6,518 bases of DNA from positions 1 to 6,518 of IMG/VR virus record IMGVR_UViG_2695420514_000014. The stretch is one strand, 5' to 3'. The position numbers were made by a program, and so were the translations under genes. Position 1 is the stretch's first letter. Every line of letters starts with the position of its first letter. This DNA comes from a virus. Lineage: Duplodnaviria; Heunggongvirae; Uroviricota; Caudoviricetes. Positions 4,103-4,509 of this stretch are shown here, piece by piece. The notes beneath the pieces were generated by a model. That model was not told the origin of the DNA. It made no database searches and worked only from the letters and a program-made list of their open reading frames with translations.

Positions 4103-4354
4103 ATGTTTAATAAGACAATTGTTTTAACTTTGCTAACATGTTTGTTTTGCTCTTCTGTCGCGGATGCGAAGCGCGGTGGGCATAGGCGCTCATATCATCG
4201 TTCGCATACTTATCATTATAAAAATAATGAAGAGAGCAAACTAAGAACCTGCTCGGGAAGATATGTTGATTATTATGGAGTTTGTGATGAAAAAATATGG
4301 AAAATAGTGAAAGTCCAAAACCTGTTACCACGAAAAAAAAGATACAAAAAGTAA
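4103..4354 (+). CDS. Small secreted basic His/Tyr-rich peptide (83-aa precursor) immediately downstream of Q
   Basis: ATG at 4103 is preceded by GGGGTAAG. The N-terminus MFNKTIVLTLLTCLFCSSVADA is a typical Sec signal with an AXA cleavage site. The mature part is KRGGHRRSYHRSHTYHYKNNEE followed by two Cys 12 residues apart. The region is AT-rich. The ORF ends 5 codons after an A8 run (4333-4340). Confidence 0.5.
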   Translation: MFNKTIVLTLLTCLFCSSVADAKRGGHRRSYHRSHTYHYKNNEESKLRTCSGRYVDYYGVCDEKIWKIVKVQNLLPRKKRYKK

Positions 4355-4509
4355 GTGGTAAGGCATCTAAAGTTGAAACTAGTTTATCTGACTCGCAAGT
4401 GAGAACCGTGTACCCACAGGAAAAGCCCAAACCTACTTGTGCTCCATTGTATATGGCTCACAAACCTGGTTATACAAATTTGCCCATATGTGTTGATGGT
4501 CAATATTAA
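4297..4509 (+). CDS. -1-frame ORF overlapping the 3' end of the secreted-peptide gene; probably its frameshift extension rather than an independent gene
   Basis: Track ORF 4297..4509. There is no credible RBS before its ATG. It is open through the A8 run in the -1 frame relative to 4103..4354 and continues 56 codons beyond it. It adds two more Cys (TCAPLY...PICVDGQY). Confidence 0.3.
   Translation: MENSESPKPVTTKKKIQKVSGKASKVETSLSDSQVRTVYPQEKPKPTCAPLYMAHKPGYTNLPICVDGQY

Follow-up and report, generated by a model that had tools for sequence, protein, structure and literature searches.

The antiterminator Q gene of a lambda-like prophage is followed, in the stretch of DNA analyzed here (6,518 nucleotides, hereafter the window, which corresponds to the late-regulatory region of the prophage), by a short open reading frame that crosses a run of eight adenines and stops soon afterwards, while the -1 frame stays open well beyond it. 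Does this arrangement produce two proteins from one message, or is it a broken gene? The first-pass annotation had proposed programmed -1 frameshifting of the dnaX type, giving a short and a long secreted isoform, with a homopolymer indel, either phase-variable or leaving a pseudogene, as a fallback. Our analysis indicates that the locus is an ordinary frameshift mutation in a split gene and not a programmed recoding signal. Positions 4103 to 4509 very probably represent one small secreted-protein gene, split by the deletion of a single nucleotide in an A run.

Table 1. Features of the window; positions are counted from its first nucleotide, and a cell is empty where nothing is recorded.
Feature	Position	Strand	Remarks
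NinX gene	45-488		Pfam
NinF gene	481-657		Pfam
NinG gene	650-1261		Pfam
Calcineurin-like Ser/Thr phosphatase gene	1258-1923		Pfam
LpxR outer-membrane protein gene	2135-3094	-	Pfam, E=6.8e-40
Antiterminator Q gene	3655-4038	+	127 aa; Pfam PF06530 Phage_antitermQ, E=5.6e-54
Insertion (moron-like) holding the gene under study	4039-4524	+	about 470 bp, between the Q end and the pR' -35
5' part of the broken gene	4103-4354	+	83 codons; ATG 4103, TAA 4352-4354
Predicted Sec signal peptide	4103-4168	+
Homologous coding sequence of the 5' part	4169-4294	+
A6 run	4290-4295	+	a 1-nt deletion here breaks the frame; intact alleles have A7
3' part of the gene, now in the -1 frame	4291-4509	+	72 codons plus stop
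Out-of-frame tail of the 83-codon ORF	4295-4354	+	IWKIVKVQNLLPRKKRYKK, then stop
A8 run	4333-4340	+	in-frame Lys codons in the intact gene; A_AAA_AAA in the shifted frame here
Conserved C-terminal Cys-loop motif	4432-4491	+	PTCAPLYMAHKPGYTNLPIC; lost from the truncated product
Late promoter pR'	4525-4552	+	-35 TTTACG 4525-4530, 16-nt spacer, -10 TATCCT 4547-4552
Terminator-like hairpin with T-rich tail	4583-4614	+	stem-loop 4583-4604; terminator scan
ORF without family match	4626-4835	+	69 aa
DUF2441 gene	4851-5390	-	Pfam; convergent with the 69-aa ORF
Holin gene	5609-5968		Pfam
Lysozyme-like ORF	5972-6448		no Pfam match

The description of the reading frames on which the proposal was built proved accurate, and all of its elements were found directly in the sequence. 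The ATG at 4103 is preceded, at a distance of 5 nt, by a GGGG (4094-4097), and the encoded product begins with MFNKTIVLTLLTCLFCSSVADA, followed by KR on the far side of the predicted cleavage site. This N-terminus has the Sec-like features that had been claimed for it, namely a Lys-containing n-region, a hydrophobic core of 15 residues with a mean Kyte-Doolittle value of 2.15 and an A-x-A motif (A-D-A) preceding the cleavage site predicted before Lys23. The basic domain announced behind it is also present as a His/Tyr/Arg-rich stretch with a pair of cysteines (C50 and C61). Frame 0 then reads CGA AAA AAA AGA, which places a heptamer, A_AAA_AAA, in register at 4333-4339, within the sole A run of at least 8 in the window, and the frame-0 stop is the fifth codon after this heptamer. 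In the -1 frame no stop is met up to 4509. This frame is open already from 4291, 42 nt before the A8 run, its preceding stop being a TGA at 4288-4290. Its openness exceeds chance, since only 77 of 20,000 mononucleotide shuffles of 4291-4506 (0.4%) kept the 72 codons free of stops, and 414 of 20,000 kept the 55 codons after the A8 run stop-free. Neither the 83-aa nor the 107-aa form of the 5' ORF is on record as a called gene. A minus-strand ORF at 4107-4430 (107 aa) was considered as well; nothing was found in its favour, and we regard it as merely shadowing the AT-rich coding strand.

The position of the true break was indicated by a Stx2e-type E. coli prophage (K_EC180, stx2e), which carries a gene at the same place as a single ORF spanning both halves. 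The linker of this homologue aligns with the -1-frame peptide of the window upstream of the A8 run, and the A6 run at 4290-4295 was therefore taken as the break. The same -1-frame peptide, NMENSESPKPVTTKKKIQK, also aligns with the linker of distant homologues. When one A was restored in silico at 4290-4295, the two halves joined into a protein of 135 amino acids that is identical over its full length to an Escherichia albertii protein, P0001 (100%, E=4.5e-87). Residues 1-64 of the product starting at 4103 are identical to this protein, while the out-of-frame tail has no counterpart in any homologue aligned. P0001 is annotated as 'hypothetical protein', so that the description of the gene as unannotated-looking was only half right, the intact allele being annotated in E. 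albertii.

Comparison with close alleles led to the same position. Eight E. albertii loci differ from window positions 4040-4625 (586 nt) by one extra A and 1-3 substitutions each, and two further loci from complete E. albertii genomes likewise carry one extra A. In a run-length census of 19 sequences, 10 loci had A7 (L003-L010, L046 and L047) and nine had A6 (the window, L011-L017 and L021), whereas the second run, at 4333-4340, was A8 in all 19. The lesion is thus a change from A7 to A6 at 4290-4295, 43 nt upstream of the A8 run. The intact context reads GAT GAA AAA AAT, and the intact gene goes through the A8 run as ACG AAA AAA AAG (Thr-Lys-Lys-Lys). Single contiguous ORFs covering both halves were found in the Stx2e-type prophage, in P0002-P0008 and in 18 of 21 species genomes. 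The fallback of a homopolymer indel was consequently right as to the kind of event and wrong as to the run; the comparison of A-run lengths that had been suggested for the A8 run shows it to be constant, the length variant sitting at the other tract. In L046 and L047 (5001-5111 in each) the sole annotation of the intact A7 gene is a 36-aa fragment with a GTG start, named 'lysine acyltransferase'. We considered this as a possible third allele and rejected it as a mis-call with a misleading name on an intact A7 allele.

These data suggest a simple course of events. The A7 run lost one A in this prophage lineage, presumably by replication slippage. Translation from 4103 would depart from the true frame at codon 65 and continue through 19 unrelated codons to the stop at 4352, and the passage of frame 0 through the A8 run would be an accident. 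The heptamer register of this run arises because the upstream deletion shifted the frame; the -1 frame from 4291 to 4509 is still open because the mutation is recent; and the linker holds several A runs because it is Lys-rich and mostly written with AAA codons. The expected outcome is a mature peptide of 61 residues devoid of the conserved C-terminal motif, and from the loss of this motif the truncated A6 product is probably non-functional. The A6 allele carries no further degenerative mutations. In all these respects the locus resembles other prophage genes split at homopolymer tracts, in which a single-base indel in a short A run leaves a pair of overlapping ORFs, intact copies of the gene circulate within the species and the downstream frame has stayed open as the event is recent. 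The sole oddity here is the second A run, 43 nt downstream, which mimics a recoding site.

How far this mimicry goes can be judged against E. coli dnaX, whose site consists of A_AAA_AAG with an upstream SD-like element and a downstream stem-loop. Both loci have a slippery Lys heptamer in register and a frame-0 stop soon after it, and a -1 frame open for 55-56 codons beyond the A8 run is what programmed -1 frameshifting, or programmed transcriptional slippage, at 4333-4340 would need to yield a short and a long isoform. However, the heptamer is the one feature present among the four that define a dnaX-type site. No SD-like element was found 10-14 nt upstream of 4333, where the sequence is AAAGTCCAAAACCTGTTACCACG and holds nothing resembling GGAGG, and the 80 nt downstream (4341-4420) gave no sign of a stimulatory structure, with an MFE of -10 kcal/mol and z=+0.99 relative to shuffles. 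An inverted repeat, 4321-4331/4355-4363 (CCU..UACCAC/GUGGUAAGG), brackets the A8 run in a 23-nt loop; it is not significant relative to shuffles (z=-1.22), and it encloses the run instead of following it. Unlike at dnaX, the layout is also unconserved, since the 10 near-identical loci, the Stx2e-type orthologue and 18 of the 21 distant homologues are single ORFs, which need no shift. Homology switches frame at 4290-4295 and follows the -1 frame from 4291, ahead of the heptamer, so that the long product is the ancestral single ORF with its homology junction upstream of the supposed shift site. Only the mutant allele has the heptamer register; the matching A run of the Stx2e-type orthologue sits in a different register, and a -1 shift in the intact allele would end after 6 codons (KDTKSKW, then stop). 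Contiguous homologues, an invariant A8 run that is in frame in the intact gene, homology from 4291 and missing stimulators together leave almost no credence for programmed recoding, and the two proposed isoforms fall with it. Nor do the two frames look like two separate genes, one for a secreted peptide of 83 aa and the other for a 70-aa protein with its own start at ATG 4297, even though gene callers do report the 70-aa ORF, on 13 contigs, and the truncated peptide retains its signal peptide and the basic His/Tyr region. The putative start at 4297 corresponds to a Met codon within the intact gene, and the sole GGAG lies 16 nt upstream, beyond the normal distance of an RBS, in line with the earlier remark that the -1 frame has none of its own. 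The 70-aa ORF is without a signal peptide, yet the Cys-loop motif which it contains belongs to exported proteins in every homologue, and the layout is one base away from a single ORF; we therefore consider the two-gene arrangement extremely unlikely. What looks like a textbook slippery heptamer with a long open -1 frame is, in the split-gene reading, the scar of a 1-nt deletion elsewhere, and recoding candidates need to be checked against close alleles.

The next issue is whether the A6 allele is a reversible state or a lineage. The 13 contigs on which the 70-aa ORF is called come from unrelated ENA and Logan datasets; seven of them were read, and all have the A6/A8 arrangement, as does an IMG/VR contig 99.97% identical to window positions 1-5669. 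Sequencing runs with the A6 allele include DRR017171, SRR27489470, SRR1999984, DRR162460 and SRR18174317. Exact-pattern scans for the locus returned no match in the genome and metagenome contig sets and one match in the viral contig set. With A6 present in nine independent sequences (the window and eight from ENA, Logan and IMG/VR), an isolated sequencing error does not explain the deletion. The A6 sequences are 99.6-100% identical to the window and, wherever they reach these positions, have C4074, T4592 and T4660 in common; the two that reach sufficiently far upstream, L011 and L021, also share the backbone on the LpxR side. No T4592 or T4660 was found with A7 among the 19 sequences. This linkage to three SNPs and one backbone argues for a single event and not for reversible switching, and A6 looks like one ancestral deletion inherited by one prophage lineage. 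A phase-variable contingency gene, in which the poly-A tracts of the linker switch the protein on and off by reversible slipped-strand mispairing, would account for the A6/A7 polymorphism among strains, and two other A runs of the Stx2e-type E. coli orthologue have indeed undergone independent 1-A insertions (compared with L001 2160-2600, A7 to A8 in E9 and A6 to A7 in UMNF18 and P13-6; L043, L044 and L045), while three of 21 chromosomal homologues are frame-broken too. The tracts of the linker are evidently mutational hot spots, judging by these alleles. But tract state is fully linked to the flanking haplotype on one backbone, the tracts are short (6-8), Lys stretches coded by AAA yield A runs naturally, and some of the E. 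coli breaks may be homopolymer errors of sequencing or assembly; in UMNF18 the neighbouring methylase gene is annotated 'frameshifted' as well. Phase variation thus appears very unlikely. A better, though still rather unlikely, prospect is an adventitious rescue, in which unprogrammed -1 slippage of the ribosome, or slippage of RNA polymerase, at the A8 run brings a small share of the products back into frame. A -1 slip or an extra A at 4333-4340 would alter only 14 residues of the poorly conserved linker, and the product would retain both Cys pairs and the C-terminal motif. There is a precedent in E. coli expression constructs, where -1 frameshifting at C-AAA-AAA alone rescued 1-nt deletions (PMC1851650). 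The A6 allele also persists in many samples without further decay, but a recent origin explains this equally well, and no sign of selection for the A6/A8 arrangement was seen. Some full-length protein may possibly be made from the A6 allele in this way, and this would be accidental.

Having assigned the locus to a single split gene, we looked at its genetic setting. The Q gene of H-19B and of Sakai Sp5 reaches up to the pR' -35 or overlaps it, and an extra segment between Q and pR' is carried by the window and by the Stx2e-type prophage. The insertion has a GC content of 36%, compared with 43% in Q and 44% in the pR' element, and its flanks are conserved. The Q protein of the window is 82% identical to that of the Sakai prophage Sp5 over residues 1-123 and diverges afterwards. 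Stx phages, 434 and others share the conserved 88 bp that follow the gene (4518-4605). Lambdoid morons are extra genes placed between conserved phage genes, as are bor, lom and stx. The present gene is like them in forming a separate inserted segment, richer in AT, between Q and pR' that H-19B and Sp5 lack, and in encoding a predicted exported protein dispensable for phage growth. It differs from them in that a consensus scan detected neither a promoter nor a terminator belonging to it, and from stx in its location upstream of pR', stx being downstream. The view of the locus as a secreted cargo gene after Q is therefore upheld, both by the sequence features and by the nature of the insertion.

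The identity of pR' bears directly on expression. The window element is homologous to the TTTACG-16-TATCAT element found directly after Q in Sakai Sp5, and its start is predicted at about 4559. For the StxS RNA, Sy et al. reported an RNase E site, GU/AUU, at +173 and the tR' 3' end at +258 (PMC7547250). Counting from an Sp5 start 7 nt past the -10 (L020 1046), +173 falls on GU/AUU (L020 1217-1221) and +258 on the end of the tR' T-run (L020 1303), and this exact fit identifies the element as pR'. The same match to the Sakai sequence eliminated another placement that we had entertained, with pR' inside Q and the gene in a constitutive pR'-tR' leader. No plus-strand promoter was found in a consensus scan of 3900-4102, a scan that weak or non-consensus promoters may escape, and a terminator scan of 4354-4524 was negative. 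As the gene lies upstream of pR', it would belong to the early transcript and not to the late one. Most likely it is read together with Q, after induction, from the early rightward promoter, and would be neither transcribed constitutively in lysogens nor part of the late transcript. The first-pass annotation had expected transcription in lysogens or at late times, an expectation that this position and the absence of an own promoter in the scan do not support.

The terminator-like hairpin that follows the predicted pR' start by about 25 nt is conserved in the Stx2e-type prophage, H-19B, 434 and PhiR40_1, and is a candidate for a partial terminator, a pause element or a Q-loading element; no second terminator was found in the window before the next ORF. 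The hairpin is also present in Sakai Sp5 (L020 1012-1097), where the published tR' 3' end is much farther away (+258). In its loop, position 4592 is T and not G in every A6 sequence that extends to it.

The intact gene would encode a 135-aa pre-protein in which a Sec signal peptide precedes a basic segment that is rich in His, Tyr and Arg and contains a Cys pair; a Lys-rich linker, probably disordered, leads from there to the conserved C-terminal Cys-loop motif. Its secretion is deduced from these sequence features. An AlphaFold2 model built on an 8-sequence alignment was mostly disordered (mean pLDDT 58, pTM 0.20) and not good enough for a fold search; confidence was limited to the signal helix and the C-terminal motif, the latter with a pLDDT of about 83. 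This motif also concentrates the conservation of the family, with 14 of the 19 invariant columns of the alignment, and is common to the homologues in type VI secretion system (T6SS) clusters. The intact protein gave no meaningful match to Pfam, PHROGs, NCBIfam or PDB sequences. The family is small, with 21 representative clusters among 1.84 billion proteins, and several of its representatives resemble frame-shifted fragments.

The distant branch of the family is named 'YdcA family' or 'hypothetical' by the sources. The prophage protein is 35-40% identical over its whole length to three YdcA-family members (P0006, P0007 and P0008), and proteins of this branch encoded in T6SS clusters share with it a size of about 130-140 aa, a signal peptide, a Lys-rich linker and a C-terminal motif, PTCAPLYMAxKPG[YF]T[NH]LPIC. 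The two branches differ in their N-terminal region, which is His/Tyr/Arg-rich in the prophage proteins and a YdcA-like domain with CSGSKGGI[AS]HC in the YdcA family. In agreement with this, P0006 matches the N-domain of PRK10040 at 5e-24 and the YdcA-family branch has a precomputed PF27300 assignment, whereas P0001 and P0004 had no match to NCBIfam PRK10040 and no precomputed Pfam match. They also differ in location, the prophage gene adjoining Q and pR' and not a T6SS cluster. In 20 of 21 Enterobacterales species genomes (L022-L042, match at about 3001-3400) the chromosomal homologues have T6SS neighbours, TssF-TssG-TssJ-TssE upstream and/or VasL/ImpA_N downstream. Identity among these homologues is 85-95% across several genera, suggesting that the T6SS cluster which bears them has spread horizontally. 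A literature search on YdcA, and on YdcA with T6SS, returned nothing relevant.

The intact gene specifies an uncharacterized, predicted exported protein located exactly between Q and pR' in prophages of E. albertii and Stx2e-type E. coli, and its sole relatives are uncharacterized periplasmic proteins of type VI secretion clusters, which makes it a modest lead for prophage accessory genes or for accessory components of the T6SS. We propose that the intact protein would be exported by Sec and form two periplasmic disulfide loops, the C-terminal one binding a partner in the envelope. A bolder version, which we hold to be a long shot, makes it a phage-borne exported relative of the T6SS-cluster periplasmic protein that acts on the same envelope target and has its expression tuned by the poly-A tracts. 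Indels would then switch the gene off, slippage at the A8 run would leak full-length product from the 'off' allele, and the A6/A8 arrangement would be a functional low-expression state and not a dead gene.

An Rfam scan of the whole window gave no match at E<=1. The calcineurin-like phosphatase gene overlaps the end of NinG by 4 nt and occupies what we take to be the NinI-like position of lambda. Between the nin region and Q lies a full-length LpxR homologue, carried within the prophage and flanked by AT-rich DNA (3095-3654, 35% GC). The LpxR family consists of lipid A 3'-O-deacylases, and the homologue is likely an envelope-modifying accessory gene. Both A6 loci that reach that far (L011 and L021) have it upstream of Q, and the A7 loci lack it at this position. 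In Stx phages the slot between pR' and holin houses the stx genes. Here it is filled by the 69-aa ORF and the DUF2441 gene, which are kept in all the E. albertii loci examined.
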